34,241 nucleotides of DNA from a bacterium (GTDB lineage Bacteria; Patescibacteriota; Microgenomatia; UBA8517), in contig JAKAJP010000022.1 of the NCBI GenBank assembly GCA_021824915.1, positions 89,832 to 124,072 on the forward strand, in the 5' to 3' direction. Made by a program: the position numbers and the translations under genes. Below the pieces are notes generated by a model. That model ran no database searches. It was not told the origin of the DNA and saw only the letters and a list, made by a program, of their open reading frames with translations. Numbering within the stretch: the stretch's first letter is position 1; every line of letters starts with the position of its first letter. Below are positions 46-34,221 of the stretch, one piece after another.

Positions 46-87
46 ACAAGTTAACTTTAACTCATGCTTAAGGTAGAATACAAGGAG

Positions 88-729
88 ATGTTGGAAATAG
101 ATATTTTGACATTATTCCCCGAAATGTTTGATGGACCTTTTCAAGCTTCGATTATTAAAAGGGCTGAAAGTCGTGATCTAATAAAAATTGATGTACACGA
201 TTTGAGAAAGTGGGGGGATGGTGAGCGAAAAAACGTTGACGACAGGCCCTACTCCGGAGGGCCGGGAATGATTTTGAGAGTAGATATAATTGATGCGGCG
301 TTAAAAGACCTAAAAACCAAAAATTCAAAAGTAATACTCTTAGATGCTACGGGGGCCAGATATACACAACAAAAGGCGGTGGAATTGGCAAAAACAAATC
401 ACTTGATTCTGATCGCGGGACACTATGAAGGTGTTGACCATAGAGTTCACGAACATTTGGTTGATGAGGTAATTTCCATCGGCGATTACGTTCTGACGGG
501 CGGAGAAATTCCAGCAATGGTTTTAGTTGATTCAATTATTAGACTCATCCCCGGAGTTTTGGGCAAAGATGAGTCTGCTGTTGACGAATCCCATAAAGAG
601 CCAGGATATCTTGAATATCCGCAATATACCCGTCCGGAAAATTACCATGGTTGGAAGGTTCCGAAAATTCTACTGGGCGGAAACCATGCCGAAATCGAAA
701 AGTGGAGAAAAGAAAAGTCAGGACTTTAG
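88..729 (+). CDS. trmD: tRNA (guanine37-N1)-methyltransferase
   Basis: IDILTLFPEMF, VDDRPYSGGPGM, GHYEGVD, SIGDYVLTGGE and LEYPQYTRP motifs. Start moved to ATG 88 (family N-terminus; -10 TAGAAT at 74-79). Confidence 0.98.
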   Translation: MLEIDILTLFPEMFDGPFQASIIKRAESRDLIKIDVHDLRKWGDGERKNVDDRPYSGGPGMILRVDIIDAALKDLKTKNSKVILLDATGARYTQQKAVELAKTNHLILIAGHYEGVDHRVHEHLVDEVISIGDYVLTGGEIPAMVLVDSIIRLIPGVLGKDESAVDESHKEPGYLEYPQYTRPENYHGWKVPKILLGGNHAEIEKWRKEKSGL

Positions 730-1614
730 CTGAAGAGCAAATTCGTCAATCATCTCACGCCAAGCCTTAAACTTCATATTAAGTTTTTCCTGGGTTTTCT
801 TGGTGGCAAGTCCACCCCAAACAGGTCTTTTATTTCTCTCCGGAGTTTTCAAAAATTCCAATAGCGAAGCTTTTTGGGCTACGTCTTTCACTCCTCGCGC
901 CTTTTCCAAAGCATAACTACCAACTTCAAAATAGGAACCAGTATCGGCGCTTACTATATGAAAATTTCCTTCAAGAGAATCGTCAATAATTTTTGTCAGG
1001 GGATCGGTTATATCATCAACAAAAATTGGAGTAATTATCTGATCTGTAAAAAGCGGAAAGAGATTTTTTTGGTCATAAAGATCTAAAATCTTTCTGATAA
1101 AGTCAGTCTTACCGGAAAACTCCGACCTAAACGGGTTTGCAATTCTTACTATTGCGTGAGGCGTCCCCACATTTGAAACTTCGACCTCACCTCTATTTTT
1201 CGTCCAGCCATACCAGCAAAGATTTTTATTATCATTGGGAAGAATTGTATCCTCATCAAATGGACCCTTTGAATCTTCTAAACCTTCGAAAACAAAATCA
1301 GTCGAAAAATGAATAAAAAACTTTTTATACTCCTTAGAGGCTTCAGCTAAATAACGGGGGGCTAAAACATTTAACTTCCAAGTAATTCCATTTTGATCAC
1401 CTGTTTCCTTTTCTGCACCGGCAACATCTGTATAAGCCGCAAGATTGACCACAACTTCAAACCCACCACCTGAAAAAAAATTCTTGATACTTTCTTTATC
1501 GGTTATATCAATTTGCTGCCGATCAACCGGAATAATATCAAATTTGTCCTTTGCCAACTCAATAAATCTTGAGCCAACTAAACCCGAAGAACCAATAACT
1601 AGGACTTTCTTCAT
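718..1614 (-). CDS. rmlD: dTDP-4-dehydrorhamnose reductase
   Basis: Rossmann GSSGLVG, VNLAAYTDV, HFSTDFVFEG, YxxxK (YGWTK), LFTDQIITP; adjacent to rmlC and rmlB. Confidence 0.92.
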   Translation of the reverse strand: MKKVLVIGSSGLVGSRFIELAKDKFDIIPVDRQQIDITDKESIKNFFSGGGFEVVVNLAAYTDVAGAEKETGDQNGITWKLNVLAPRYLAEASKEYKKFFIHFSTDFVFEGLEDSKGPFDEDTILPNDNKNLCWYGWTKNRGEVEVSNVGTPHAIVRIANPFRSEFSGKTDFIRKILDLYDQKNLFPLFTDQIITPIFVDDITDPLTKIIDDSLEGNFHIVSADTGSYFEVGSYALEKARGVKDVAQKASLLEFLKTPERNKRPVWGGLATKKTQEKLNMKFKAWREMIDEFALQLKS

Positions 1615-2186
1615 TTTTTGAATTTTTCAGGGAAAGCTTCGCGTAATGTAGAATTTTTCTTATCGCGTTCTGAAAGAATTGGGTTGTCTACCGGCCATTT
1701 AATATTCAGGTCGGGGTCGTCCCAAGCAATTCCGCGGGCCTTGGCATCATCCCAATATTCATCGATCAAATAGAAATAATGCATCATCTCCGTTCCCATT
1801 ACACAAATGGAATTTCCTATTCCTCCTGACGGCAAAAACAATGCCTGACGTTTTGTATCTTCCTTAGTGTTATCGATAGTTACGTATTCCACCTTGCCAA
1901 AAGTAGAACTTTCGGGTCTAAGATCAACTATCGGCGCATATAAAATTCCGGTTACCGGATAAATTAACTTATTCCAATTTTCGGTATGAATTGCTTTAAT
2001 GACACCGGGCTTAATATAAGCGTGTGTCCATTGTACGGGACTAAAGCTTACACCAGTTGCCTCTTCCAGCTCTTTTTTGTTGTAAGGTTCATGAACAAAT
2101 CCGCGAGCATCTCCGTGAATTGGTCTTTGTATTAAAACAACACCGGAAATGCCGGTTTTAATAATGTTAGATGATTTGTCAGTCAT
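1611..2186 (-). CDS. rmlC: dTDP-4-dehydrorhamnose 3,5-epimerase
   Basis: HGDARGFVHE, PGVIKAIH (catalytic His), VDLRPESSTFGK, GIAWDDPDLNIKWP, LSERDK. Confidence 0.93.
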   Translation of the reverse strand: MTDKSSNIIKTGISGVVLIQRPIHGDARGFVHEPYNKKELEEATGVSFSPVQWTHAYIKPGVIKAIHTENWNKLIYPVTGILYAPIVDLRPESSTFGKVEYVTIDNTKEDTKRQALFLPSGGIGNSICVMGTEMMHYFYLIDEYWDDAKARGIAWDDPDLNIKWPVDNPILSERDKKNSTLREAFPEKFKK

Positions 2187-4104
2187 TTTTTCTGCTATTC
2201 TCCGAAAGGTTAATCGTATAAATCCCGGACAGAGTTAATCTTGCCATTGCTGCTAAAAAGTAAGAGTCGTCACATTTATTAACCATCTCCGATATCTCAC
2301 CAACTGGCCAAAGAACAATTCCGACATTTTCTTCAAATTTATCTCCAGCCTGGACTTCCGGATATTTCTTCTCCTCAAAATCAACAATTACTGCGTACAA
2401 ATTTGGATGGTTATTCGTCATACCGGTGTCTGGGGAGACTCTACCTAAACTTATTATTTCATTTAACGTAACCCCGTTATTTCTAACATCAAGATTCAAA
2501 TCTCTTTTAAGAGACCTTATTATGAAATCCAAAACGCTTTCATTGAGACGAGGAAAACCTCCGGCCAGGTTATACATAACTCCCCCTGCAGGAAACTTTT
2601 GTTCTCTTTGAAACGCAAAGTGAGTTATTTCCCCCTTTCGCCTGACTAAAACTAAGAGCTTGGCCCCGGATTTAGGTCCCCAACCCCAGGAATAGAACCC
2701 CTCGGAGCGCATTTCTTTTTTATTATCAACGACCTCAAACCAAGTGGCTATGCCATAAATTCCAAACTTTTCTTCTGCGTGAACGATTTTAGTAAGTCTC
2801 AGGATTGTATCCCCCACAAGAGTATCAGCCCTAGCAGCTAAATCCTCCACATATCCAAAAGTTGAGGGATCTAAGGCAAGTTTATCAATCTCCTCCTTAA
2901 TCATACTTGAACTATCCTGATACCATTTCTTTGCCCTCAAATTTTTCATAACAATCTCGTGACGAACCAAATTTTCTTCAACAAAATGTTCTTTTAGATC
3001 ACTTTTCTTGACCTCAGACTTATCTTTTTCTTCAAATCTACCAAATATAAACTTAGTTTTACCTGTTTCCCTATCCAAAGTGATAAAGGCGCTAATTGCA
3101 CGGTTATCATCCGTAATCATGGCACGTCTTTTAAGAAGCGGTCTCCACCAATCCTGATTATTCCTATACCACTTAATGGTTTCCTTCAAACCGTCATCAA
3201 AATTTTCCCGACCGACTTTAGGCTTCCAACCAAGTTCCGTAATAATTTTCGTTGCGTCAATTGCATACCTTCTGTCATTTGAGTGCCTGTCCGGGACATG
3301 TCTTATTTCATCAAGCCCTTTTCCAAATAAAGTAACAACCCGTTCGGCAATATACTTGTTGTCGCGATCATTATTTGAACCAACTAAATATGTTTCCCCT
3401 TTTTTGCCTTTTTCCAAAATCAAATCTATTGCGGAAGCATGATCAGATGTATGAATCCAATCACGGACATTTCGTCCATCACCATGAAGCGGTACACGAA
3501 TTCCGTCAATTAAATTAGTCACCGCAATCGGTATAAATTTTTCAGGAAATTGATAAGGTCCGTAATTATTTGAACAATTTGAGATTGTGATGAACATATC
3601 AGTTTTTTTTGAAAAATCCAAAACGACATTATCCGCCTCTGCTTTACTTAGAGCATATAAATTGTCGGGCCTCGGTGAATAAGGGGTCTTTTCAGTAAAC
3701 TTCTCGTCCGAATTAAGTGGTAACTCTCCATAAACTTCATCCGTTGAAATGTGATGAAATCTGGGAACCTTTAGTTTCACTGCCTCGTCCAAAAGAAGTG
3801 CAGTTCCCCGAACATTTGTCTGCCAGTAACGGGAAGGGTCAAAAATGCTCCTATCGACATGGCTTTCTGCAGCAAAATGAACAATGGCATCCACCCCTTT
3901 AATGGCGTCGTGAACTTTAGCCCTGTCATTGATGTCGGCCTCAAAAAACTTAATCTTTTTGATTATTGGCCGAAGATTTTCAAGATTTCCAGCGTAGGTT
4001 AGCGCATCAATTACCCTGATTTCATCCCCTGGATGCTTTTCCAACCAATAATAAACAAAGTTGGCCCCAATGAAACCTGCCCCGCCCGTAACCAATAGCT
4101 TCAT
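2179..4104 (-). CDS. rmlB: dTDP-glucose 4,6-dehydratase fused to a C-terminal ~313-aa extension containing a degenerate Nudix-like domain
   Basis: N-terminal ~327 aa: TGGAGFIG, HFAAESHVDRSI, STDEVYG, YALSK, NCSNNYGPYQFPEKFIP, RDWIH, WYRNNQDWW. The frame continues without a stop into a region with GGFPRLNESVLDFIIRSLKRDLNL and LGRVSPDTG. Confidence 0.93.
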   Translation of the reverse strand: MKLLVTGGAGFIGANFVYYWLEKHPGDEIRVIDALTYAGNLENLRPIIKKIKFFEADINDRAKVHDAIKGVDAIVHFAAESHVDRSIFDPSRYWQTNVRGTALLLDEAVKLKVPRFHHISTDEVYGELPLNSDEKFTEKTPYSPRPDNLYALSKAEADNVVLDFSKKTDMFITISNCSNNYGPYQFPEKFIPIAVTNLIDGIRVPLHGDGRNVRDWIHTSDHASAIDLILEKGKKGETYLVGSNNDRDNKYIAERVVTLFGKGLDEIRHVPDRHSNDRRYAIDATKIITELGWKPKVGRENFDDGLKETIKWYRNNQDWWRPLLKRRAMITDDNRAISAFITLDRETGKTKFIFGRFEEKDKSEVKKSDLKEHFVEENLVRHEIVMKNLRAKKWYQDSSSMIKEEIDKLALDPSTFGYVEDLAARADTLVGDTILRLTKIVHAEEKFGIYGIATWFEVVDNKKEMRSEGFYSWGWGPKSGAKLLVLVRRKGEITHFAFQREQKFPAGGVMYNLAGGFPRLNESVLDFIIRSLKRDLNLDVRNNGVTLNEIISLGRVSPDTGMTNNHPNLYAVIVDFEEKKYPEVQAGDKFEENVGIVLWPVGEISEMVNKCDDSYFLAAMARLTLSGIYTINLSENSRKND

Positions 4105-4163
4105 ACTTTTGTGTGAGTTAAATTATACATTCAGGTGTGATTACGCTGCAAGCGAAGCATACG

Positions 4164-4646
4164 TTATGTATGCTTGTCAGCAACAGTCGAAGCTCCCCAG
4201 CTTTCAGGCTTGGTCTTAGCGGTATATCCATTACCACTAACCATACCAGTGACCTCCTTTATCATTTCGCGGGTAGCCCCCATTGGTCCCACATCAATGT
4301 GAATTTCAAAATCATATTTTGAAGGTGAGACTTTTTTTCTCAAGAGTGGAACCAATTCCTCCGCCGCCGCCAGAGATAAAAGTGTTTCCGTATAAATCTT
4401 TTCCCTCAAGACAGGCTTTTTGAATTCCTTCCGTTTTTTCCAGAAGTACCTGGCGCCATGCCCTTCTCTATGAACTATCACCGCGGTTACAAAATCAATC
4501 TCATTCTTGCCATTTACCCTCTTGGCCTGTGAATCGCTGCCTATTACTACACGATAAAACTTCCCGGGTTCCTCATCAACAAAATCGGAAATCTGGGAAA
4601 CCATGGCTTCAGGGGTCAACTCTCCCATGGTCGGGCTGTGAAACAT
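4164..4646 (-). CDS. Ribonuclease H-like YkuK-family protein
   Basis: VIGSDSQ, FVTAVIVHREGHGARYFW, EIHIDVG, KPESWGASTVADKHT. Start moved to ATG 4646, 8 nt after TATAAT. Confidence 0.85.
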   Translation of the reverse strand: MFHSPTMGELTPEAMVSQISDFVDEEPGKFYRVVIGSDSQAKRVNGKNEIDFVTAVIVHREGHGARYFWKKRKEFKKPVLREKIYTETLLSLAAAEELVPLLRKKVSPSKYDFEIHIDVGPMGATREMIKEVTGMVSGNGYTAKTKPESWGASTVADKHT

Positions 4647-4687
4647 TTCGCACAATTATACGACTAATTGAGGCTGAGGAGCAATTT

Positions 4688-5584: not shown

Positions 5585-5608
5585 TGGGTTCCTAGATTAT
5601 ATAAAAAA

Positions 5609-5869
5609 CTAGCCTCTAATGACAAGTGAAAAGAGAATTGTAAGCCCTAAAATTGCAACTGCCAAATATTCAATAAACGTTTCAAAATGCAGATCTTTAT
5701 GCAAAAAATGGTGCATTACCCCCCAAATCACATAAGAGGAAGCTGTGGCAATAGCGACAGCAATCTGAAAACCTTTATCATAAGAAAATAAAGTAAAACC
5801 AATAAATCCGGCAAATAGAATTCCGAAGAGTGTAAGGAAGTGTGGCAAATCTCGGGCGAATTTTTTCAT
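5609..5869 (-). CDS. Small integral membrane protein, 3 predicted TM helices, His-rich loop
   Basis: 86 aa, three hydrophobic stretches, loop MHHFLHKDLH; its ATG directly follows the CAP gene stop. Confidence 0.75.
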   Translation of the reverse strand: MKKFARDLPHFLTLFGILFAGFIGFTLFSYDKGFQIAVAIATASSYVIWGVMHHFLHKDLHFETFIEYLAVAILGLTILFSLVIRG

Positions 5870-6784: not shown

Positions 6785-6786
6785 TA

Positions 6787-7773
6787 CTATCCATTGTATC
6801 CCTTTGGATGGGTTTTGTGCCAGAGGTAGGCAGACTTCACAATTACCCCAAGATCGTATTTTGGATTCCAAGATAAGCCCGACTTAATTTTATCAATCGA
6901 TGCCCAAAGTTCGTCGGCATCCCCCGGTCGTCTTGATATAAATTTGGCTTTCACTTCCAATCCAGTTTCCTTTTGAATTGCGTCTATTATTTGTTTATTT
7001 GAATAGCCACTGCCCGATCCTGCATTATAAAAATCACTCTTAGCTCCACTAAAGAGAGCATTTAGCGCGAGGGTGTGATTATCCACCAAATCCAAAACAT
7101 GAACATAATCACGGATGCATGTTCTATCGGGAGTATTGTAATCGTCACCAAAAATTTCAACCTCCTCATTATTCAAAGCTTTTTTAATAACATTCGGAAT
7201 TAAATGAGATTCCTCCGGATGGTCTTCGCCAATACTCCCATCCATCGCTGCACCGGCAGCATTAAAATAACGTATACTCATAAACTTTAGGCCATAAGCG
7301 GAATCATAATCCTCAAGCATTCTCTCCATAATGTACTTAGTTTCGCCATAAGGATTTAATGGATTTTTGGGATCATCCTCTTTTATCGGCAGAGTTTTAG
7401 GATTTCCGTAAACACCTGCTGTCGAAGATAAAATTAATTTTAGAACGTTATTCTTGACCATAGAATCTACCAAGTTCATAAAACCGATGACGTTATTTTT
7501 GTAATATTTCGCGGGGTTTTTATACGACTCACCCATTTGGATGAAGCTAGCCATGTGAATTACCCCGTCAAATTTTTCATTTGCGAAAAGCGCACCAACT
7601 TTTTCTTTTTCGCTAACCAAATCTATTTTTTCAAGTCTAAACCCGGAAACTGCTTTTTCGTGACCTTGTGAGAGATTGTCCAAAATTACTGGGTCAAACC
7701 CAACTTCTTTGAGTTTTCGGACCATAAAGGACCCAATATACCCCGCCCCACCTGTAACCAATATCTTAGCCAT
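6787..7773 (-). CDS. galE: UDP-glucose 4-epimerase
   Basis: ILVTGGAGYIGS, LSSTAGVYG, PLNPYGETK, RYFNAAGA, DGTC-like TPDRTCIRDYVHV, RRPGD. Confidence 0.95.
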   Translation of the reverse strand: MAKILVTGGAGYIGSFMVRKLKEVGFDPVILDNLSQGHEKAVSGFRLEKIDLVSEKEKVGALFANEKFDGVIHMASFIQMGESYKNPAKYYKNNVIGFMNLVDSMVKNNVLKLILSSTAGVYGNPKTLPIKEDDPKNPLNPYGETKYIMERMLEDYDSAYGLKFMSIRYFNAAGAAMDGSIGEDHPEESHLIPNVIKKALNNEEVEIFGDDYNTPDRTCIRDYVHVLDLVDNHTLALNALFSGAKSDFYNAGSGSGYSNKQIIDAIQKETGLEVKAKFISRRPGDADELWASIDKIKSGLSWNPKYDLGVIVKSAYLWHKTHPKGYNG

Positions 7774-8195: not shown

Positions 8196-8202
8196 GCAAT
8201 AA

Positions 8203-9000
8203 TTATATCGTATTTTGAGGCAATGTTTCTTTTTGTTTTTTGAAGGCAAGATATCCGGAGAATCCCATCAGAACCACACCCGCACCCACCAAAGTAAAAG
8301 CCAAAACAGGAGATTTACTCTCCGAAACCTCTCGGGAAGAAGGTGAGGCCGTCGGAGTTTTAATATCTTCACTACCCAAAATCGATCCGGAAGATTGCGG
8401 GGTTGAGCTTGGAGATTTCGTCGAGCTCGGCTTTGGAGATGGACTTCTGGTCGGGGTAGGAATTGGAGAAGGGGATTTCGTCGGAGAAGGTGAAGAAGTC
8501 GGTTGTGCAGTTGGATCCGGACTTGGTGAGGAGGTGGGAGAAGGTGAAGAAGTTGGAACTGGAGTCGGGGACGGATTTTCCGAACCCTCGGTTACTTGAG
8601 TAAAAACAACAAAGTTACCAATTCCATTTGGACTTCTCCCAAACGTCCTTGAACCACTAATATCTTGGTCATAGGTAAAACTCTCTCCTGTACAACTTAA
8701 AGAAATAGTATCTCCTGAGTTGTTTAACCAATTTCCTATCCATGCGGATGTGACATCCTTTTTCAACACTCTATATCCCAGCGGTAAAATAATATCGCCC
8801 TCGACAAAAGATATTTGTTGAGTTGCACTTCCCATTGATAGAATGCAACCCGACATTGAAACTTCGGAACTGGATGTATTAAAAAGCTCAACCCATTCAC
8901 CATATGGGCTGACTTCATTTATTACAACCTGAGCAAAAACTTGTGAAGGAAATACCAAAAACAAAACAGCAGCGAACAATAACCAAATAAACTTATTCAT
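8203..9000 (-). CDS. Secreted lamin-tail-domain (LTD) protein with Pro/Ser/Thr linker and C-terminal membrane anchor
   Basis: Signal peptide ending VFA-Q; VVINEV, EWVELFN, LNNSGDTISL, GRSPNG; (TSSPSP)n linker; hydrophobic C-terminus followed by KKQK. Confidence 0.82.
   Translation of the reverse strand: MNKFIWLLFAAVLFLVFPSQVFAQVVINEVSPYGEWVELFNTSSSEVSMSGCILSMGSATQQISFVEGDIILPLGYRVLKKDVTSAWIGNWLNNSGDTISLSCTGESFTYDQDISGSRTFGRSPNGIGNFVVFTQVTEGSENPSPTPVPTSSPSPTSSPSPDPTAQPTSSPSPTKSPSPIPTPTRSPSPKPSSTKSPSSTPQSSGSILGSEDIKTPTASPSSREVSESKSPVLAFTLVGAGVVLMGFSGYLAFKKQKETLPQNTI
8483..8553. repeat. 17-bp direct repeat (ggagaaggtgaagaagt at 8483 and 8537) within the low-complexity PST linker
   Basis: Identical 17-mers 54 bp (18 codons) apart; both encode TSSPSP on the minus strand. 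Confidence 0.8.
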
Positions 9001-11122: not shown

Positions 11123-11225
11123 GCTTTAACTATTTTACAATAATTTCAAGAAAACCCCGAGCTTCCGCGAGGGGATGAATTGAATTTAGTGCCAAGATTT
11201 GCCTTAGGGCCGAAGCCAAAACCTT

Positions 11226-11900: not shown

Positions 11901-11926
11901 TACCTACCAGAGTATCACATGAAGCA

Positions 11927-12370
11927 CTATTGAACAACCTTAATCATGACCACATCCATTAACCACGGAGCGCTCTTTGCAGCCAAAGTATTTCCCCAAA
12001 CCTGAACCTTTTTACCAACAAAACTCCCCAAATCAACCACACTTGAAGTTAAATAGACATAGTGGCTGGGTCCTGCATCACTTGTAAGATGATACCTCCC
12101 CTCACCTTCGATTCCCCCTTCGGCCAACGTACCTGTAGCATTATCCCCCTTAAAATCCTTTGGCAAAACTCCGGCTTCCGTCTGAGTAACTTTTGCACCC
12201 GGCGCCCCTTTAGCACTGGAGCCTCCGGTAAGTTTTCCCGAAACCAGCCAGCCGGTGCCCAAACCTAATAAAACCACAATAACGGCGCCAATAATAAGGG
12301 GTGAGATACGCTTTACATCAAACTTTGGAAAACTCTTTAACATTTGGGGGGCTTGAAACTGCGTTTCCAT
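11927..12370 (-). CDS. Membrane-anchored hypothetical protein with a small beta-rich (OB-like) C-terminal domain
   Basis: One TM (IIGAVIVVLLGLGTGWLV); C-terminus YHLTSD..YLTSSVVDLGSFVGKKVQVWG. The OB-fold call is an impression only. Confidence 0.7.
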   Translation of the reverse strand: METQFQAPQMLKSFPKFDVKRISPLIIGAVIVVLLGLGTGWLVSGKLTGGSSAKGAPGAKVTQTEAGVLPKDFKGDNATGTLAEGGIEGEGRYHLTSDAGPSHYVYLTSSVVDLGSFVGKKVQVWGNTLAAKSAPWLMDVVMIKVVQ

Positions 12371-12379
12371 AATTAGACT

Positions 12380-13411
12380 TTAGTTTATTTTAAGCTCTGC
12401 GTCAATGAAATCTTCTATTTCTCCGTCCAGTACAGCTTCAGTTTTCCCTGTTTCTACCCCAGTACGAAGATCCTTGACCATTTTATATGGATGAAGCACA
12501 TAGCTTCTGATTTGTGTTCCCCAAGAAGCGGGGCGATAGTCACCCTTAAGTTCCTTCTTTTCCTTTCCCGCCCTCTCCTTTTCCAAAATCCAGAGTTTAC
12601 TTCGGAGCAAATTTAGAGCAATTTTTCTGTTTTGTTCCTGAAATCGCTCGCTTTGGGCAGTCACAACAATTCCCGTTGGAATGTGAGTCAGGCGAACCGC
12701 CGTAGAAACTTTATTTACGTTTTGGCCCCCATGCCCGCCGCTTCGAACAAACTGCCAAGACAAATCCTCATCTTTAATATTAATCTCGGGCAAGTCCACC
12801 TCCTCGAGTTCCGGAAGAACCTCAACAAGCGCAAATGAAGTCTGACGAAGTTTATCTGCATTAAAAGGCGATTGTCTAACAAGTCTATGAGTACCAGCCT
12901 CATTCTTCAAATAACCGTATGCATACTTTCCCGAAATCTCGAAAGTAATACTTTTAATCCCAGCTTCTTCCCCGGAAGTCATATCAATTACATCTAATCC
13001 CCAACCGCGCGTTTCAACATAACGGCTATACATCCTAAAAAGCATACTTACCCAATCCATTGCTTCGGTCCCACCCTGTCCGGCATGTATCGCCATCAAG
13101 GCGTTCTTTTGATCGTATTTTCCGGAAAGAAAAGAAAGAAGTTCAAGTTTACTCAAAGCCTTCTCGGCCTTGGCAACCTCGTTCTCGTCAGGAATTTCTT
13201 TAAGAATAGAAATCGTTTCACCTAATTCATCAATTTTTTCGATCTCACGTTTAAGATCGGCCAGTTCTTGGGTAACCGACCTTGCGCGATCAGCATCACT
13301 CCAAAGATCCGGTTTTGAGACTTCTGTTTCAAGAAGCCTGACTCTTTCCTTTTTGCCTTCGTAATCGATAGATTCCTTTAGTTTCACAAAACGATTTAGA
13401 AGATCTTCCAC
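12380..13411 (-). CDS. prfB: Peptide chain release factor 2
   Basis: SPF anticodon tripeptide (RLVRQSPF), GGQ (GGHGGQNVNKV), WGTQIRSYVLHPY; GTG start; single uninterrupted frame. Confidence 0.97.
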   Translation of the reverse strand: MEDLLNRFVKLKESIDYEGKKERVRLLETEVSKPDLWSDADRARSVTQELADLKREIEKIDELGETISILKEIPDENEVAKAEKALSKLELLSFLSGKYDQKNALMAIHAGQGGTEAMDWVSMLFRMYSRYVETRGWGLDVIDMTSGEEAGIKSITFEISGKYAYGYLKNEAGTHRLVRQSPFNADKLRQTSFALVEVLPELEEVDLPEINIKDEDLSWQFVRSGGHGGQNVNKVSTAVRLTHIPTGIVVTAQSERFQEQNRKIALNLLRSKLWILEKERAGKEKKELKGDYRPASWGTQIRSYVLHPYKMVKDLRTGVETGKTEAVLDGEIEDFIDAELKIN

Positions 13412-13428
13412 CCCTGAAGTATATCAAA

Positions 13429-13890: not shown

Positions 13891-13912
13891 GACTAAATTG
13901 TAGCACAACCAA

Positions 13913-14583: not shown

Positions 14584-14613
14584 AGTATAAACGGATATAT
14601 TATAGTTTGTCAA
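14584..14613 (-). promoter_or_regulatory. sigma70-type promoter of the LytR_C gene
   Basis: TTGACA (14613-14608), 18 nt, TATACT (14589-14584). Confidence 0.65.
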
Positions 14614-15711: not shown

Positions 15712-15725
15712 GCCTGAAGTATATA

Positions 15726-16763: not shown

Positions 16764-16772
16764 TGGAAAATT

Positions 16773-17393
16773 TTATTTGTTATTTCTAAAAAAATCCAGA
16801 AGCTTTTGACTGGATGTTTCGGACTTTAATGTATCATACAAAAATGTTTGCCAGCCAAGATCCCGCGCGGCCGCAATATTCTTGTAACTATTGTCAACAA
16901 ATAAAATTTGGCTCCGATCAAATCCACTTTCCCTCTCCGCATATTCAAAAATTTCCTTATCCGGTTTCTGAAGGCTAATTTTGCTTGAATCGACAACTAC
17001 ATCCCAATCGATATCAGGGATTAGCTTTCTTTTTTCTATTTCTTCTAACATATGGGGATACATATTTGTTAGAAGCCCAATCCTAGAATATTTCTTAATT
17101 TCCTTAACTACGGGCCAAATTGATTTGTTTACAGCGAACCGATTCACAAAACCGTTGACCAAAAGGGAATAGTTTGGCGGAAATTTTACACCAAATTTCC
17201 TTTCCAATAACGGTTTCATGAGTTCTACATCGCGTGTTGTATTTATATCTCGAAAACCATCCCAATAGTTGTCAAATTCTTCGAAACGGTCCGGATTTAT
17301 GCCAATTTCAGCCTTTAACTCTTCCCATTTATTTGTTCCACTGAAGTCAAATTCGGCAACTCCTCCAACATCTAGATAAACAAATGAAATCAT
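16773..17393 (-). CDS. HAD-superfamily hydrolase (YihX-like, subfamily IA)
   Basis: Motif I YLDVGGV, II LLTN, III KPDKEIF, IV LFVDN. Start moved to ATG 17393, 1 nt after the secA stop. Confidence 0.88.
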   Translation of the reverse strand: MISFVYLDVGGVAEFDFSGTNKWEELKAEIGINPDRFEEFDNYWDGFRDINTTRDVELMKPLLERKFGVKFPPNYSLLVNGFVNRFAVNKSIWPVVKEIKKYSRIGLLTNMYPHMLEEIEKRKLIPDIDWDVVVDSSKISLQKPDKEIFEYAERESGFDRSQILFVDNSYKNIAAARDLGWQTFLYDTLKSETSSQKLLDFFRNNK

Positions 17394-20097: not shown

Positions 20098-20158
20098 GAG
20101 CTCTTAATTGTAACAGATAAGGCTACTTTTGCCTTTAGCAAAAGATCTTATCAGCCGG

Positions 20159-20761: not shown

Positions 20762-20809
20762 GAACTAATTATACTTGTTTCGTATTTTGTTTGGTGATAT
20801 ACCATGTTG

Positions 20810-21970
20810 ATGGCAAATGTACCCCTACCGGAACTTCTAAGACCTAAGACGTTAAAAGATTTTGTCGGACAAAATAATTTGGTTGGACGCGATGGAATTA
20901 TCACAAAACTTCTAAAAATCGATTCTTTTTTCCCCTCATTAATTTTCTGGGGACCACCAGGGTCAGGAAAAACAACCCTCGCAAGAATTGTTGCCAATAC
21001 TCTAAAGCGAGAATTTTTTGAATTTTCTGCAGTTAATACGAAGGTAAAAGATATTGAAACATTAATAAGCGAGAAAAAACAGCTGAAACTTACAAGAGCT
21101 CCGATTGTATTCCTTGATGAAATCCACAGGTTTAATAAGGCTCAACAGGATAAACTTCTTCCTCACGTTGAACGCGGCGATATTGTACTAATTGGTGCCA
21201 CAACCGAAAACCCCAGTTTTGAAGTAATCGGACCCTTACTTTCCCGTTGCCGCGTTCTTATTCTTGAGCAGTTATCCGAAAAAAATCTCCTAAAAATATT
21301 GAGCCGTGCCCTAAAACATCTTAAAAAGAAGTTGAACAAGGAATCGGAAAAATTCTTACTCGAGGCGAGCAATGGCGACGCCCGTGTAATGCTCAATGTT
21401 TTGGAAATCGCCGTACAAGTTCACCCGACGGGTGTACTTAAGCTAAAAGACATTGAGGATGCGCTACAAAGAAGACAATATACTTTCGATAAACGGGGGG
21501 AAGATTTTTACAACGTAATTAGTGCATTTATTAAATCTATGCGGGCAAGTGATGTCGATGCTGCGCTTTATTATCTCGCGCGGATGGTTGCAGCAGGCCA
21601 GGACCCGCTCTATATTGCAAGACGAATGGTAGTTTTTGCATCAGAGGATGTTGCCTCGCCAACGGCTCTGGTTGTCGCTAACGCAGTTTTTCAAGCTTGT
21701 AATGAAATTGGTTATCCTGAATGCCAGGAAAACTTAGCGGCGGGAGTTGTTTATCTTGCAATCGCCAAAAAAAATCGCTCCGCATATAACGCTTATATGG
21801 AAGCTTTAAACGATGTAAATAAGTTAGGCAATCTCCCCGTACCATTAAAGATTAGAAATCCGGTTACAAAACTTATGAAATCCGCCGGTTACGGAGATGG
21901 TTATAAAAAATATGAAAAATCCAGCCATCTACCAGAAAAATTAAAAGGAAAGAAATATTTCAGACCCTAA
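20810..21970 (+). CDS. rarA: Replication-associated recombination protein A (MgsA/RarA AAA+ ATPase)
   Basis: GPPGSGKTT, FLDEIHRFNKAQQD, GATTENPSF, FIKSMRASD, RRMVVFASED. Start is 20804 or 20810. Confidence 0.96.
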   Translation: MANVPLPELLRPKTLKDFVGQNNLVGRDGIITKLLKIDSFFPSLIFWGPPGSGKTTLARIVANTLKREFFEFSAVNTKVKDIETLISEKKQLKLTRAPIVFLDEIHRFNKAQQDKLLPHVERGDIVLIGATTENPSFEVIGPLLSRCRVLILEQLSEKNLLKILSRALKHLKKKLNKESEKFLLEASNGDARVMLNVLEIAVQVHPTGVLKLKDIEDALQRRQYTFDKRGEDFYNVISAFIKSMRASDVDAALYYLARMVAAGQDPLYIARRMVVFASEDVASPTALVVANAVFQACNEIGYPECQENLAAGVVYLAIAKKNRSAYNAYMEALNDVNKLGNLPVPLKIRNPVTKLMKSAGYGDGYKKYEKSSHLPEKLKGKKYFRP

Positions 21971-23204: not shown

Positions 23205-23218
23205 AGCTAATTATACAT

Positions 23219-24386: not shown

Positions 24387-24395
24387 TGCTAAAAA

Positions 24396-24689
24396 TTATT
24401 TTTTGGAAGTTTTCTTGGCTTTTACTTCTTTCCAATCACCTTTCATTCTCATGAGTTTCATCTTCATGACCATAAAAAGGAGATATTTAACAAAAGCAAA
24501 AACAAACATTACTCCAGCAACAATAATAATCCACTTGATCACTACATAAGGGTTGATCGTCGGAAAAACAAACCCCAAGCCGAAAATCAAAAGCATTCCA
24601 AAAACACTAAATGCTATGGACATTAAAATATCCATATGTGCCATTTTTCGCATTTTGTGCACTTTCCACATCATTTCTTCGTTCATCAT
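24396..24689 (-). CDS. Small Met-rich membrane protein (2 TM)
   Basis: 97 aa, 15 Met by hand count, two hydrophobic helices, basic C-terminus; tightly packed between lysS and the HD gene. Confidence 0.7.
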   Translation of the reverse strand: MMNEEMMWKVHKMRKMAHMDILMSIAFSVFGMLLIFGLGFVFPTINPYVVIKWIIIVAGVMFVFAFVKYLLFMVMKMKLMRMKGDWKEVKAKKTSKK

Positions 24690-26166: not shown

Positions 26167-26189
26167 ATAGCCTAAGTATAAGCGCGGGG

Positions 26190-26657: not shown

Positions 26658-26668
26658 ACCCAAAAACT

Positions 26669-26698
26669 AAAAAATCCCTCTCTTTTTTGGAGAGGGAC
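26669..26698 (-). terminator. Intrinsic terminator inside the greA 5' leader
   Basis: Minus strand GTCCCTCTC-caaaaaa-GAGAGGGAT then TTTTT: 9-bp stem including one G-U, ending about 11 nt before the greA ATG. Confidence 0.8.
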
Positions 26699-26798
26699 TA
26701 GGTTTATTTCTCTCCAAATTAAAATGCCCTAATAAAGAGGGTCATCTTAACAATAATTTTGGAGGGATTACAAACCATATTTTGAACCAATGAGGCTG

Positions 26799-26827
26799 AT
26801 TGTAGACTCTATGTTTAGCCTTGTCAA
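26799..26827 (-). promoter_or_regulatory. sigma70-type promoter of greA
   Basis: TTGACA (26827-26822), 17 nt, TACAAT (26804-26799). Confidence 0.85.
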
Positions 26828-26937: not shown

Positions 26938-26949
26938 AAGCTAACTGGT

Positions 26950-26958
26950 ATTATACCA
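26950..26958 (-). promoter_or_regulatory. Extended -10 promoter of tRNA-Glu
   Basis: TGgTATAAT ending 12 nt upstream of the tRNA 5' end. Confidence 0.7.
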
Positions 26959-26967
26959 CACCAAAAC

Positions 26968-27030: not shown

Positions 27031-27037
27031 GGTAAAT

Positions 27038-27658: not shown

Positions 27659-27660
27659 CG

Positions 27661-30078: not shown

Positions 30079-30081
30079 ATT

Positions 30082-30108
30082 TTAGCAGTCTAACTAATTA
30101 AGTGCTAG
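30082..30108. promoter_or_regulatory. CIRCE element (HrcA operator) overlapping the lon promoter
   Basis: TTAGCAGTC-N9-AAGTGCTAG versus consensus TTAGCACTC-N9-GAGTGCTAA: 15/18 with the exact 9-nt spacer. Confidence 0.8.
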
Positions 30109-30115
30109 TTGTCAA
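30087..30115 (-). promoter_or_regulatory. sigma70-type promoter of lon
   Basis: TTGACA (30115-30110), 17 nt, TAGACT (30092-30087), then 8 nt to the ATG. Confidence 0.82.
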
Positions 30116-30573
30116 GAGAGGAATTTCCTAAAATGAACCTTTTCAATAACTACAGCTACAATTGTGCCTAAAAAGGCCCCGCCCACAATATCAACTGGAT
30201 AGTGAACGTTAGCAAGAACTCTGGAAATCCCGATAGCCACAGCTGCAATCAAATAAACCCAGCCGATTTTTTTATCGTGCATAAAAATCGTGGTCGCTAA
30301 AGCGAATGCTAAAGTGGTATGTTCAGAAGGAAAGGCCCCATCAGTTGGCCTTAACATAACCTCAATTTCTTTTCCATTTGTAACAAAAGGTCGTAGAGTC
30401 GGAAAAAAACGTTTAATAAGGAATGCTATAATCCATGCGACCGCACAAGCCGCAAGAGCGTGGACAACCTGCTCCTTTTTTATTTTACCATCAATAAACC
30501 AAAGAATTATTAATCCTGCAAACAAAAACCAGATTAGGAAAGTTGCAAAAAATTCAATTAAGATATCCTCCAT
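30112..30573 (-). CDS. PAP2-family phosphatase (undecaprenyl-pyrophosphate phosphatase, BcrC-like)
   Basis: C1 KRFFPTLRP, C2 FPSEH, C3 SRVLANVHYPVD; multiple TMs. Start moved to ATG 30573. Confidence 0.88.
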   Translation of the reverse strand: MEDILIEFFATFLIWFLFAGLIILWFIDGKIKKEQVVHALAACAVAWIIAFLIKRFFPTLRPFVTNGKEIEVMLRPTDGAFPSEHTTLAFALATTIFMHDKKIGWVYLIAAVAIGISRVLANVHYPVDIVGGAFLGTIVAVVIEKVHFRKFLS

Positions 30574-30609
30574 TTGATTCATGGTACCACATGTGCTAAC
30601 TTGAAATCG
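30574..30609. promoter_or_regulatory. Compact bidirectional extended -10 promoter pair
   Basis: Minus: TGgTACCAT-7nt-ATG. Plus: TGcTAACTT-7nt-ATG. Centred on the palindrome CACATGTG (30588-30595). Confidence 0.6.
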
Positions 30610-30993
30610 ATGCTCGCAAGTAAACATGCTCTATCAAAAAGTTTTGGATTTGCATTCGAAGGGCTTAAGACTGCCGTTTTGCAGGGCAGGAACTTCAGGG
30701 TCCAAATCATAATTGGTGCTTTGGCAACTATCTTGGGGTTTATTCTCAAACTCAACTACACAGAGTGGCTCCACCTTGTTTTAATAATTACAATCATCCT
30801 GGTTCTTGAACTAATAAACACATCTATTGAAGCAATAGTAGATATTGTTAGCCCGGAAAAACAGGAAAAGGCCAAGATTGCTAAAGATGTGGCCGCGGCG
30901 ACAGTACTTTTAGCCTCAATCGGATCGGTTATTATTGGAGTTATGCTCTTTTTACCTAAAATCCTAATCTTTCTTTCACAAGGATCAATGTAA
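30610..30993 (+). CDS. dgkA: Prokaryotic diacylglycerol/undecaprenol kinase (DgkA family)
   Basis: SFGFAFEGL, NFRVQ, ELINTSIEAIVD, AKIAKDVAAATV. Start moved to ATG 30610. Confidence 0.92.
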   Translation: MLASKHALSKSFGFAFEGLKTAVLQGRNFRVQIIIGALATILGFILKLNYTEWLHLVLIITIILVLELINTSIEAIVDIVSPEKQEKAKIAKDVAAATVLLASIGSVIIGVMLFLPKILIFLSQGSM

Positions 30994-31570
30994 TTCTACC
31001 CGGCTTAAACTCTTTATTGATTATTAAAAGTTTGCTGACATTACTCCCGTTGGGATTTCCTTTTTCTTTCTGCCTTTCGGATTCTTTCGGAAGCGAATAT
31101 TCATAAACTCTTCTAACTCCCTCATCCCAATTTTTAACAATTTTTTGGGTGCCGACCACCCAAATCACACGCCCGGCTGAATATGCATACGACGCAAGCT
31201 GACTTCCCGTGTTACTGGCAATAAAAATGTGTCCATCCTCGCTTACAGCATGAACGCTGCCGATAGCCCAATCTGGAGCCGCGCCAAGCTTTTGCATCTC
31301 ACGTCCTTGAGTATTTCTATCCATTTTAAGTAGTTTTGCTTTAATAGAATCAAAATTCCCTGTTTCATTTATTTCTTTTGTAATCCCAGTGGCCTCAAGA
31401 GTTTGGGAAGACATGGTCATCACCTCTGCCCCTTTGGGAACTATTTCTAAAACTTTTTCCTTTGCCAACTGCCCGTTTTCAACCACAAAAACATCAATTC
31501 CCTCGTTTTTTAATGAAGTCGCCGTCTTTTCAATAGAACTATCAAAGGCTAATTCTTCCCAGTTATTCAC
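30956..31570 (-). CDS. LUD-domain (YkgG/LutC-like) protein
   Basis: AIGSVHAVSEDG..IASNTGSQL..Y..VIWVVGTQKIV pattern; GTG start. Confidence 0.75.
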   Translation of the reverse strand: MNNWEELAFDSSIEKTATSLKNEGIDVFVVENGQLAKEKVLEIVPKGAEVMTMSSQTLEATGITKEINETGNFDSIKAKLLKMDRNTQGREMQKLGAAPDWAIGSVHAVSEDGHIFIASNTGSQLASYAYSAGRVIWVVGTQKIVKNWDEGVRRVYEYSLPKESERQKEKGNPNGSNVSKLLIINKEFKPGRITLILVKERLGF

Positions 31571-31581
31571 GCCTTATTGTA

Positions 31582-31851
31582 TCAGAAACCGGATGAAGCA
31601 GAGTTAAGTTGATTAAGTTGAGAGTCAATTTGAGTTGTATCTTGTGCATCAAGGCTGGCTGAAATTTTGTCCAAATCGCTCGAGTTTTGTACCGGAGCAA
31701 TCTGCGCTTCCGATGGTTGAGTCTGCTGCAACGAGTAATTGGGAACCTTGACACCCATTTTTTGAGAGTAAAAAATGTAACCAAGTGCCGCCAAAACAAC
31801 GATCACCCCACCTATTAATAAAATTTGAATAAATCCTTTTTGATTTTTCAT
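31582..31851 (-). CDS. Small membrane-anchored protein with a prepilin-like (class III) N-terminus
   Basis: MKNQKG|FIQILLIGGVIVVLAALGYIFY; 89 aa. Start moved to ATG 31851, 1 nt after the upstream stop. Confidence 0.72.
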   Translation of the reverse strand: MKNQKGFIQILLIGGVIVVLAALGYIFYSQKMGVKVPNYSLQQTQPSEAQIAPVQNSSDLDKISASLDAQDTTQIDSQLNQLNSASSGF

Positions 31852-31852
31852 A

Positions 31853-32554
31853 TTATGGTGTCGCTGTCGGCGTTGATGTCGGGCTTGGCGTTGGTGAGGC
31901 CGTGGCAACCGGTGTTCCCGAAGTCTCAGGTGAACCCCCAACCAAAGTCCTAATTGCAACTATTAAATTCTTAATCGACGTGCGATAGTCCTGCAAAGCC
32001 TTTTTAACCACCTGCATATCTAGCCTATATTGTGTAATTTGAGCCTTCGGATTATCTGCCGTACAACTAAATCCGGAGATATCATTTTGAGTGTTATTCA
32101 AAGCGGTTTGAACCGCAGCTCTTTTTGAAGCTATATCAGCAACCAAAGCATTGTAACTGGGAAGGGATTTACCGCTGGGGACAAGTTTATTTGTATAGAA
32201 GTCTTCGACTCTTTTTGCTATTTCGTCAAAGACACTAAGCATACGAGACGAAAGGTTATCCAAACTATTATGCCTCTCTTCTATTTCTTTTTCATGGACC
32301 TGGCAAAACTTCAGCCTTTTTTCTTCAAGCCGATCTAACACCCAAGCTTTTGGAGATCGCGAAGGATTCGGCGTTTCGTTTCTCTCCTCAAAACGCTTAA
32401 AGAAACCAAAAATACCCCCACTACGTGGCGCTGGCGATGATGTGGTTTCCGGAATTGCCGAAGGATTTGGGGTTTCTTCAGCGTTAGCCTTTGTTACATA
32501 AAAGGCAAAAAAGGACGATACGAGAAGTGTTGCGAGAATATATTTCAATCTCAT
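31853..32554 (-). CDS. Secreted helical hypothetical protein with Pro/Thr-rich termini
   Basis: Signal peptide ending ANA-EE, ETPNPS twice, amphipathic helical core with two Cys, (PT/PS)n tail. Confidence 0.78.
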   Translation of the reverse strand: MRLKYILATLLVSSFFAFYVTKANAEETPNPSAIPETTSSPAPRSGGIFGFFKRFEERNETPNPSRSPKAWVLDRLEEKRLKFCQVHEKEIEERHNSLDNLSSRMLSVFDEIAKRVEDFYTNKLVPSGKSLPSYNALVADIASKRAAVQTALNNTQNDISGFSCTADNPKAQITQYRLDMQVVKKALQDYRTSIKNLIVAIRTLVGGSPETSGTPVATASPTPSPTSTPTATP

Positions 32555-32559
32555 AATTT

Positions 32560-32589
32560 ACGCTATCAAATAGTTATACGTAATGTCAA
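32560..32589 (-). promoter_or_regulatory. sigma70-type promoter of the 32554 gene
   Basis: TTGACA (32589-32584), 18 nt, TAGCGT (32565-32560) preceded by TGa; 5 nt to the ATG. Confidence 0.6.
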
Positions 32590-32657
32590 CCTTTTTGTTA
32601 CGAAATTACTAAACTAAGCTGAGCAGTCGGGTCTAGGACCATTCTATCATATAACTC

Positions 32658-32713
32658 GTGTCTCACCTTGAGGCTAAATGAGACAAATGAGACACTATAA
32701 AAAGGGATATCCC
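32658..32713. repeat. Intergenic cluster of TGAGAC repeats and a palindrome
   Basis: GTGTCTCA (32658-32665) inverted against TGAGACAC (32688-32695); tandem AAATGAGAC x2 (32676-32693); perfect palindrome GGGATATCCC (32704-32713). Confidence 0.6.
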
Positions 32714-32784
32714 GTACTACTAATGATATATTTTGATACATTTACCAATAATCTTTGAAAATTTGATTGTTATATAATAAAAAT

Positions 32785-34221
32785 ATGGATTCAGAAAGCC
32801 TAATACGAAAAGATTCAGACGATGAATTTAGAGGAATTCAGAAATTACAGCAAAACTCCCCCGACTATCACCCCGTTAAATCCGAACAAAGCATGGCCGA
32901 AGAGAGAAAGGTACGCCACGATTTACAACTTCAACATGTCGATCCGGAAATTATAAAGGCTATTAGAGGTTACAAACCAGAAGAAATTCCGTTTGTTTAT
33001 AAAGATAATCCAAGCGAGGTTTACGCTCAGGTCAATCGTGGAGCAACAGCCAGTATGGAGGAAGGTCTTTCTGAACTTTGGGTTGGGTCGTCAGATGAAA
33101 TATGGAATTTGTATAACAAAAACGGCTGGACGGATCAGATTCCAGAAGTCTTAGTACAATGGAGAGGATTAGAGCTGAAAAAGAATAAAGGGAATAAAGA
33201 AGTTTCTAGACAGGAGATAAGGCATCTTAGTGGAGGAAGATTCTTGGAGTTGGAATATAGGGGGGTATCAAAGATGGGGGAATTTGATGGCCACCTTGAC
33301 CACATTTCTATTTACACACCGAAGGGAACTTTTCGCCCATATGGTGGCAATGAGAGAAATAGTTATGAGATAACTTCAATATCAAGAAGAAGGGACGTAG
33401 ATGTTAAGGGCCTCCCGGGTGGTAGAAAAGTAGTTGATAGTGGAAACGATATTGAGTGGGCTATCTCTGGTGGTTTTGGTCATGTTGAGGGCACCAGTAT
33501 GCTTAATGGTTTGGGGGAACTATTATGGCCACAACGAATAGCCTCAATTGGTTCAGTAAAATGGGATCCAGATAAGCGATATAGATTTAGTGAATTGCCG
33601 GAACCCGTTAAGAGAAAAGTTCCTGCTCTTCCACCGGCAAAGGCGGATTTAGTAGAACTTCAAAAAGGTTTGGCACCACAAGAAGATATTGGAGCCTTGC
33701 TTAACGATGCTCAGGAAATTATGGCCAAGCTGTACACCAACTTAAAGCCAAACTTAGGATCAAAAGGTATCCAGGGTGCGGGTGTGGAGATGGAGCTTGA
33801 TGGAATTGCAAACCATGCTGATAAAATCTGGGTTCTGGATAAATATCTTGATGAGGCGAATCTTCAAGCAAGGTTTGCATTGAGGATAGCGTTAGCAAAG
33901 TCTTTCAGCAAAGGTGATATTTCTAAGTGGATTAACGAAGTATTCCTAAAGTCAGAACCTTTGCAAAATGATTTGTTAACAAGGAATGCACGACATTTAG
34001 TTTTATGGTTGAAGCGCAGCAAATTTGATTACAATGGAATTAAATCAGCTTTGGCAAAAGCAAACTCTGTTTTGGAAGAGGGGGCTCAAAAAAATCCGGA
34101 CCAAATGGATCAGCTTACATTTGAGATATTGAGACGGGGAAATGAAGGATTAGGGTCATCACTAATTGAGCGGTATGTAGAATATCTTGCCCAAAGTTTC
34201 CTTGGAAAATATCTAAATTGA
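32785..34221 (+). CDS. Hypothetical cytoplasmic protein, 478 aa, no recognisable family
   Basis: Long open frame; ATG 32785 lies 6 nt after TATAAT (32773-32778); no TM or signal peptide seen. Confidence 0.8.
   Translation: MDSESLIRKDSDDEFRGIQKLQQNSPDYHPVKSEQSMAEERKVRHDLQLQHVDPEIIKAIRGYKPEEIPFVYKDNPSEVYAQVNRGATASMEEGLSELWVGSSDEIWNLYNKNGWTDQIPEVLVQWRGLELKKNKGNKEVSRQEIRHLSGGRFLELEYRGVSKMGEFDGHLDHISIYTPKGTFRPYGGNERNSYEITSISRRRDVDVKGLPGGRKVVDSGNDIEWAISGGFGHVEGTSMLNGLGELLWPQRIASIGSVKWDPDKRYRFSELPEPVKRKVPALPPAKADLVELQKGLAPQEDIGALLNDAQEIMAKLYTNLKPNLGSKGIQGAGVEMELDGIANHADKIWVLDKYLDEANLQARFALRIALAKSFSKGDISKWINEVFLKSEPLQNDLLTRNARHLVLWLKRSKFDYNGIKSALAKANSVLEEGAQKNPDQMDQLTFEILRRGNEGLGSSLIERYVEYLAQSFLGKYLN

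Follow-up and report, generated by a model that had tools for sequence, protein, structure and literature searches.

Why should hexamers that resemble the -10 element of a bacterial promoter stand a few nucleotides before one start codon after another, at the distance of a ribosome-binding site? The question is raised by a 34.2-kb stretch of DNA (C1:89832-124072; hereafter the window, meaning the whole stretch that was analyzed) from the 752-kb genome of an uncultured bacterium, in 32 contigs, with about 40% GC and a completeness of 97%. Of the 40 protein genes in the window most lie on the minus strand; a single tRNA-Glu is also present. A preliminary description of the sequence had named many of these genes, and Pfam agrees with its names for trmD, rmlBCD, ftsEX, a release factor, tgt, secA, serS, lysS, greA, lon, PAP2 and dgkA. 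The nearest labelled matches of SecA belong to Gottesman-, Levy-, Collier-, Shapiro- and Roizmanbacteria, in agreement with a place of the organism in the CPR/Microgenomates. The same description had listed -10 boxes close to the start codons of 16 of about 40 genes, and had proposed leaderless initiation from individual promoters, gene by gene, as a main mode of expression in this organism. From the analysis of the sequence presented below, we consider it likely that the boxes are sigma-70 promoters that yield leaderless or near-leaderless mRNAs.

We define the gap as the number of nucleotides between the -10 hexamer and the start codon, so that a hexamer starting at -12 has a gap of 6. All 16 pairs of hexamer and gap in the preliminary description were located at their places, with correct gaps, and the boxes held up as such; the count was too low. 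A TANNNT hexamer at a gap of 5-9 precedes 25 of the 40 window genes, where chance alone would give one to about 7-12% of genes. The boxes that had been overlooked precede the VanZ, FKBP, HD, LUD, ftsE and CAP genes and the hypothetical gene at 12370 (gaps 5-8). Among the 25 boxed genes, 23 are credible and two, greA and LTD, are doubtful; in 14 the box is also accompanied by TGn or by a TTG with a spacer of 16-18 bp.

The position of the motif was then followed through the whole genome, where gene calling by codon bias and longest open reading frame (ORF) gave 735 genes, 714 of them usable. TGA is a stop codon in this genome and ends 186 of the called genes. Each start was assigned as the most upstream ATG, GTG or TTG and is hence blind to the motif; the start choices of the preliminary description were not used in the statistics. 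Enrichment over background, which that description had put forward as the check on its proposal, was found as a sharp peak: TANNNT stands exactly at -12 in 104 of 714 genes (14.6%), with 16-44 genes at each neighbouring offset (binomial p = 2e-25 against the in-frame neighbours), versus 1-2% in controls. At in-frame start-like codons deep in genes the -12 rate is 1.0% (72/7187), and at 2,458 shadow ORFs delimited by the same longest-ORF rule it is 1.8-2.3%. Boxes with a gap of 5-9 are found in 225 of 714 genes, compared with 68-85 in decoy windows of equal width further upstream.

A peak of this kind could be an artefact of low GC, of in-frame TAA or TAG stops before longest-ORF starts, and of starts chosen with the box in view. 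Indeed, an in-frame stop, TAA or TAG, makes up the first three bases in 59 of the 104 -12 hexamers, the in-frame offsets (-15, -18, -21) are mildly raised, and the first starts had been picked by eye. However, the non-stop hexamers, which begin with TAT or TAC, peak as well (45 at -12 vs 4-22 elsewhere), and the shadow ORFs have no peak under the same rule. Two Firmicutes of lower GC (27-31%), run through the identical pipeline, do not have one either (5/161 and 2/58 genes at -12). Together with the internal controls, these genomes indicate that neither AT-richness nor the method yields the signal. Stop-type hexamers are no poorer in -35 or TGn elements than the rest (46% vs 49%; control 14%) and are therefore promoters in which the in-frame stop is incidental. 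The statistics come, moreover, from the blind longest-ORF starts. We rejected the artefact on the evidence of the non-stop hexamers, the shadow ORFs and the low-GC Firmicutes, and consider it extremely improbable.

What surrounds the hexamers is typical of promoters. With genes chosen solely on TANNNT at -12, and flanking features thus left unselected, T, T and G are enriched at -35 to -33. A TTG at a spacer of exactly 17 bp is present in 17.3% of the set vs 1.7% of within-gene hexamers, and with spacers of 16-18 bp allowed the shares are 26.9% and 7.3% (p = 1e-9); the TGn extension is present in 25% vs 7.4% (p = 3e-8). Two sigma factors are encoded in the genome, a primary-type one of 365 aa and a small one. 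The hexamers are very probably real sigma-70 promoters, in which they would serve as functional -10 elements of the housekeeping type, often together with TGn or with a TTG -35 at a 17-bp spacer.

An AT-rich hexamer before starts could also act in translation rather than transcription, as a non-Shine-Dalgarno ribosome-binding or enhancer signal of the type defined as group B by GeneMarkS-2. The motif does lie at an appropriate distance for this, Shine-Dalgarno (SD) pairing is unused (see below), and the relatives of this organism have bS1, which binds AU-rich leaders. Nevertheless, a TTG exactly 17 bp upstream and a TG one base before the hexamer are unexpected for a translation signal, and the invariant T-A....T is the recognition pattern of sigma region 2 (PMC6028130; MetaGeneMark-2 preprint). 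A translation signal should also be present before operon-internal genes. If we call coupled those genes that overlap, or lie at most 8 nt from, a co-directional upstream gene, a box with a gap of 5-9 is found in only 15% of coupled vs 44% of uncoupled genes. Finally, the tRNA-Glu(CTC) gene (minus strand, 26938-26960) possesses its own extended -10, TGgTATAAT, some 12 nt upstream of the mature 5' end, so the same promoter type appears to drive an untranslated gene. We find a role of the hexamer in translation very hard to reconcile with these features, and give it only a slight probability.

If the hexamers are promoters, their distance to the start codon becomes critical. Across 49 bacteria with mapped starts, the position of the transcription start site (TSS) is centred 7 bp past the -10 element (PMC12641261), and a hexamer at -12 to -7 would therefore put +1 on the start codon. 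Within the -12 set the first base of the start codon is A in 80%, G in 18% and T in 2% of genes, and TTG starts are rare (2/104 vs 108/610 elsewhere, p = 3e-6), as expected if this base doubles as a purine transcription start. Scans from the promoter side, with TTG-N16-18-TANNNT, TGnTANNNT and TATAAT-like patterns, show distances to the next start that peak at 6 and then at 8-9, with a tail to 17 and a nearly empty range at 20-40. By this geometry, RNA polymerase would initiate on the purine (A or G) that opens the start codon at the dominant gap of 6, or 1-3 nt before it at gaps of 7-9. Such mRNAs would lack room for a ribosome-binding site, and may be translated by direct binding of the ribosome and initiator tRNA to the 5'-terminal AUG or GUG. 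Leaderless or near-leaderless expression of this kind appears to apply to some 15-25% of the genes in total, and to some 40-50% of the uncoupled ones.

The same promoters might instead give short leaders, between a few and some 10 nt long, translated independently of SD pairing through an A-rich unstructured start and with the help of bS1. Consistent with this, gaps of 8-11 are frequent in the window and before secA in the relatives (mode 9), boxes with a gap of 10-17 show some -35 or TGn enrichment (25-39% vs 14%), boxless genes are A-rich at -1 to -8, and a short four-domain bS1 is found in all relatives checked. Yet the sharpest and largest class is exactly that of gap 6, for which the canonical TSS coincides with position 1 of the start codon. 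That TTG starts are nearly absent from this class fits a purine 5' end that is the start codon itself. Leaders of 1-3 nt behave as leaderless where they have been studied, and in mycobacteria leaders of 0-5 nt are counted as leaderless. We thus judge short-leadered translation to be unlikely, although less so than the other alternatives, and keep to leaderless or near-leaderless transcripts in what follows.

Little in this genome suggests that ribosomes are recruited by SD pairing, which is essentially unused, in agreement with the scarcity of SD motifs remarked upon earlier. SD 4-mers with a spacer of 4-10 nt precede 8.0% of starts vs 7.5% of internal controls, and 5-mers 5.0% vs 3.1%; among boxed genes, SD-like 4-mers are down to 1.3%. 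The same test recovers SD motifs in 52-55% of genes in the two Firmicutes (27-31% GC). The preliminary description had pointed to the anti-SD of the 16S rRNA and to bS1 and bS21 as correlates to be checked, and a loss of any of them is not supported. bS21 is present in this genome. The 16S rRNA gene was not found in this assembly; the 3' end of the 16S rRNA in same-family genomes is GGATCACCTCCTTTCT, and loss of the anti-SD was rejected since these rRNAs end in CACCUCCUUUCU. The sole S1 domain in the assembly belongs to PNPase. A multi-S1-domain ORF of 360-433 aa is nonetheless present in 15 of 15 related genomes checked, and lies about 10 kb from the 16S gene in the three of them in which it was placed (G003, G059, G175). 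We rejected a loss of bS1 because the ORF occurs in all 15 relatives and, in those three, near the 16S gene, which this metagenome-assembled genome (MAG) also lacks. The absence of bS1 is most likely an assembly gap, and one rRNA-proximal segment with both 16S and bS1 was probably not binned in this 97%-complete MAG. A short bS1 with three to four domains is typical of the candidate phyla radiation, or CPR (PMC9297842).

How, then, are genes without a box expressed? Among the 698 genes with a neighbour, 309 (44%) are coupled, and ATGA overlaps by themselves make up 61 of these. Most genes other than the boxed ones overlap or abut the preceding gene, and termination-reinitiation coupling is the probable route of their translation. 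The 389 uncoupled genes comprise 173 (44%) with a box at a gap of 5-9, 74 with a box at a gap of 10-17, 11 with an SD-like motif and 131 with nothing detectable, the chance level for a gap 5-9 box being 7% in coding sequence and about 10-12% in upstream decoy windows. When only uncoupled genes with an unambiguous start are considered, such a box is found in 71 of 136 (52%). Boxes are also frequent in the short spaces between co-directional genes: they occur in 37 of 55 spaces of 13-30 nt, and in eight of nine spaces of exactly 9 nt, where the TAA of the upstream gene forms the first three bases of the hexamer (TAAnnT, 6 nt, ATG). Divergent gene pairs are separated by a median spacer of 58 nt. 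The many internal promoters may have a simple reason: without SD-led internal initiation, an uncoupled gene would need a start codon at the 5' end of an mRNA.

These numbers are in line with leaderless initiation and individual promoters as a main mode of expression, as originally proposed. Strict gene-by-gene transcription, the other half of that proposal, goes too far and is only partly right: the 309 coupled genes are mostly boxless, and terminators are not enriched. Terminator-like hairpins in the window are not above shuffles (21 vs 16.7, sd 4.7; 11 vs 15.8, sd 3.9), and the convincing terminators are solely those that flank the tRNA-Glu/greA region. Monocistronic transcripts are unsupported, since intrinsic terminators do not exceed shuffles. 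Many genes own a promoter, and nested read-through transcripts are more likely than strict gene-by-gene units because of this lack of terminator enrichment between genes.

The arrangement is conserved among relatives. The -12 peak was found in three complete genomes of the same family (15/127, 18/134 and 6/99 genes) and in four of the same class (15/103, 14/89, 9/94 and 6/81), that is 83/727 when family and class genomes are pooled. Named Microgenomates-type loci gave 52/309 when pooled and a Paceibacterota genome 19/89; three other CPR genomes were weaker. A heterogeneous sample of 60 further genomes of the phylum had 74/945 genes with the hexamer at -12 vs 4.1% at in-frame neighbour offsets (p = 1e-7), and in this sample the signal was stronger in SD-poor loci (49/503) than in SD-rich ones (7/220; p = 0.002). 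High-GC loci from outside the CPR (Nitrospira, Chloroflexota and others) had no -12 signal. The promoter features are conserved as well. We pooled three sets, namely the family and class genomes, the named Microgenomates loci and the SD-poor loci of the phylum sample, and in each of them TTG at 17 bp (10-18% vs 1.5-1.9%) and TGn (31-36% vs 7-8%) were enriched and TTG starts were few.

Two genes allow the box to be placed relative to starts that are supported by homology. The start of secA is fixed by a conserved N-terminus, M-[LF]-x-x-[FL], and a TGnTAnAAT-type box lies 6-11 nt upstream of it, most often 9 nt, at about 19 of the 22 Microgenomates-type loci. For tgt, the relatives represent over a dozen families within the class, and about 12 of 17 have TATAAT, TAAAAT or TATACT 6-8 nt before the homology-supported start. 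In several of these tgt relatives the longest ORF is wrong, and the boxed ATG is the one that homology supports.

Several points weigh against leaderless expression on this scale. TANNNT is a loose motif, and about 7-12% of genes would have one in a 5-nt window by chance; when alternative start candidates are allowed, the gap-6 class alone is clearly above background. Our home-made longest-ORF caller misses some out-of-frame boxes and may inflate the coupled class. In the window, gaps of 8-9 are frequent, as in lon, lysS, secA and ftsX, and these genes would have leaders of 1-3 nt and not be strictly leaderless. Nothing in the ribosome points to a leaderless specialization, given the anti-SD and short bS1 of the relatives and the bS21 of this genome. 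The total of promoter-like sites in the window (TTGACA/TATAAT-like) is not above shuffles either (39 vs 37.8; 39 vs 33.4): it is the position relative to starts alone that carries promoter information, not the number of sites.

Within the window, the individual boxes illustrate the range of arrangements; those described in this and the next two paragraphs are on the minus strand unless a plus strand is indicated. The gap of 6 is found before the VanZ-like gene (TATAAT 8202..8207, ATG 8195), the HD-domain protein (TAATTT 24393..24398, ATG 24386) and tgt (TATACT 15718..15723, ATG 15711), the last with TTGGAA at a 16-bp spacer. The FKBP isomerase gene has TAAAAT at 16770..16775, with the same gap to ATG 16763, and lies 9 nt from the upstream stop. 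Similarly, the gene of a 147-aa hypothetical protein, just 9 nt from the prfB stop, combines TAAAGT (12377..12382, gap 6 to ATG 12370) with TTGACG at a 17-bp spacer. Two other hypothetical proteins share this gap: one of 153 aa with the extended -10 TGcTACAAT (13897..13902, ATG 13890), and one of 478 aa on the plus strand with TATAAT (32773..32778, ATG 32785). The release-factor gene designated prfB has an extended -10, TGaTATACT (13418..13423), 6 nt before a GTG at 13411. A second release-factor gene is located outside the window, at C2:29205-30250 (minus strand), where the bL31 gene (rpmE) ends in TAA and is followed after 12 nt by a short gene that begins at domain 2, keeps PVT and GGQ, and has no N-terminal domain. 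Comparable open frames of about 230-250 aa are seen in relatives, so that truncated RF1-type factors appear to be widespread in the class.

The methyltransferase gene (TATAAT 20768..20773, gap 6 to ATG 20761) is divergent from rarA, the start of which is 42-48 nt off. The rarA/mgsA gene (plus strand, 20795-20812) has TGaTATACC, an extended -10 with C in place of T as its last base, 6 nt before a second ATG at 20810, and the annotated longest start at 20804 may for this reason be wrong. PAP2 and dgkA form a tighter divergent pair with gaps of 7. PAP2 has the extended -10 TGgTACCAT (30581..30586, ATG 30573), and dgkA, on the plus strand, has the extended -10 TGCTAACTT (TGcTAACTT) at 30594-30602 (hexamer 30597..30602, ATG 30610). 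Their start codons are only 36 nt apart and the -10 boxes on opposite strands 10 nt apart, so that the -35 of each gene falls within the coding sequence of the other. The gap is 5 for serS (TATAAT 23210..23215, ATG 23204), whose Pfam N-terminal domain is aligned from residue 1, as well as for the LUD-domain protein, which has the extended -10 TGaTACAAT (31576..31581) before GTG 31570, and for the gene at ATG 32554, in which the extended -10 TGaTAGCGT (32560..32565) is accompanied by TTGACA at an 18-bp spacer.

Among the longer-gap genes, lon has a full promoter, TTGACA-17-TAGACT (30087..30115), with 10/12 matches and a gap of 8 to ATG 30078. The same gap of 8 is seen in lysS (TATACT 26175..26180, ATG 26166), with TTGCGA at a 17-bp spacer; in ftsE (extended -10 TGaTACTCT 11909..11914, ATG 11900), with TTGTTC at a 17-bp spacer; in the GT2 glycosyltransferase gene (TAAAGT 54..59, ATG 45), with TTGTAT at an 18-bp spacer; and in the RNaseH-like/ykuK-type gene (TATAAT 4655..4660, ATG 4646). 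The gene of the CAP-domain protein (TACAAT 6793..6798, gap 8 to ATG 6784) has its box within the 3' end of the upstream epimerase gene. On the plus strand, trmD has TAGAAT at 74..79, 8 nt before ATG 88, and an alternative TAACTT at 52-57, 6 nt before ATG 64. The gap is 9 for ftsX (TAAAAT 11132..11137, ATG 11122) and for secA (extended -10 TGtTACAAT 20107..20112, ATG 20097).

Other genes of the window have a leader or no signal. The rmlB, NTP-transferase and LytR_C genes have good boxes 11-17 nt upstream, from which leaders of about 4-10 nt without SD are predicted. These boxes are TATAAT at 4122-4127 for rmlB (gap 17) and at 5596-5601 for the NTP-transferase gene (gap 11). The LytR_C gene (minus strand) has the near-consensus TTGACA-18-TATACT (14584..14613), 17 nt before ATG 14566, and its implied leader would be about 10 nt long. 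No signal was detectable upstream of the starts of hyp97 and VanW. As for greA (minus strand, ATG 26657), it was rejected as a leaderless gene, its TAGTTT hexamer being part of the T-run of a terminator, and a near-consensus promoter, TTGACA-17-TACAAT (26827-26799), lies about 135 nt upstream. The leader of about 135 nt (region 26658..26827) folds strongly (-42 kcal/mol, z = -4.0) and closes in an intrinsic terminator hairpin (26699-26673) directly before the ATG. In a search against Rfam only the tRNA matched, and the greA leader was below threshold for every family. The layout of promoter, leader and terminator is reminiscent of the Escherichia coli greA leader with its GraL attenuator.

How does this architecture compare with those already known? 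GeneMarkS-2 assigns to its group C the genomes in which a Pribnow box lies 6-8 nt away from gene starts and 25-50% of operons are leaderless. The group is characteristic of Actinobacteria and Deinococcus-Thermus, with Mycobacterium tuberculosis and Deinococcus deserti as examples (Lomsadze et al. 2018, PMC6028130). Our genome is similar in that a TANNNT box lies 6-8 nt before the start in a large share of first genes, the starts are ATG or GTG, SD is absent in boxed genes, and a quarter to half of transcription units are concerned. It differs in three respects. The remaining genes of group C use SD, whereas SD is at background genome-wide here, and the dual model of that group does not apply. 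The group C members with genetic code 11 are almost all high in GC (MetaGeneMark-2 preprint), compared with 40% in this genome. Lastly, the boxes are not limited to operon fronts but also fill most short gaps inside co-directional arrays. CPR and Microgenomates appear to lie outside the coverage of that survey (PMC6028130).

Group C also includes 33 Mollicutes of reduced genome with genetic code 4, four Mycoplasma among them (MetaGeneMark-2 preprint, 10.1101/2022.07.25.500264). Compared by description, they share small low-GC genomes, 30-60% of genes predicted to be leaderless and TANNNT near the start (10.1101/2022.07.25.500264), but belong to another phylum and use another genetic code, TGA being a stop here. 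Group B, found in Bacteroidota and the Fibrobacteres-Chlorobi-Bacteroidetes (FCB) group (PMC6028130), is similar in that the anti-SD is kept in 16S rRNA, SD is hardly used and the region before starts is AT-rich. In group B, however, the motif stands before every gene, even inside operons, and is incompatible with a promoter, whereas the present motif is paired with -35 and TGn elements and is scarce before coupled genes.

In the literature searched, we found no paper on leaderless expression in CPR, Patescibacteria, Saccharibacteria (in the sense of transcripts), Microgenomates or Parcubacteria. The CPR set of transcription start sites that is cited, from Nanosynbacter lyticus, comprises 188 sites inferred from RNA-seq coverage and is described as imprecise. 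The mechanism is thus known from other bacteria, and the lineage would be new for this architecture, of which we found no report. It is conceivable, and in our estimate somewhat less probable than not, that much of the CPR/Patescibacteria (the Microgenomates and at least some Paceibacterota) constitutes a third large clade dominated by leaderless expression, after Actinobacteria and Deinococcus-Thermus, essentially SD-free despite its anti-SD and with a two-state gene layout. In such a layout, a gene would either lie within 8 nt of the previous one and be reached by reinitiation, or have its own promoter that makes the start codon the 5' end of an mRNA, and the -10 box would often be placed within the 3' end of the upstream gene or in its stop codon (TAAnnT at a 9-nt gap). 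Under this tentative reading, the two states would be forced by SD-free translation.

One consequence concerns annotation: gene callers and annotators that expect SD motifs will misplace many CPR start codons, as the tgt relatives demonstrate. If confirmed by mapping of 5' ends, the arrangement would provide simple rules for the prediction of promoters and starts in a huge uncultured radiation, and would account for the very short intergenic regions of CPR. It would also bear on how a minimal translation apparatus chooses its start codons without SD pairing, and would guide the design of expression in the few cultivable CPR bacteria and their phages.

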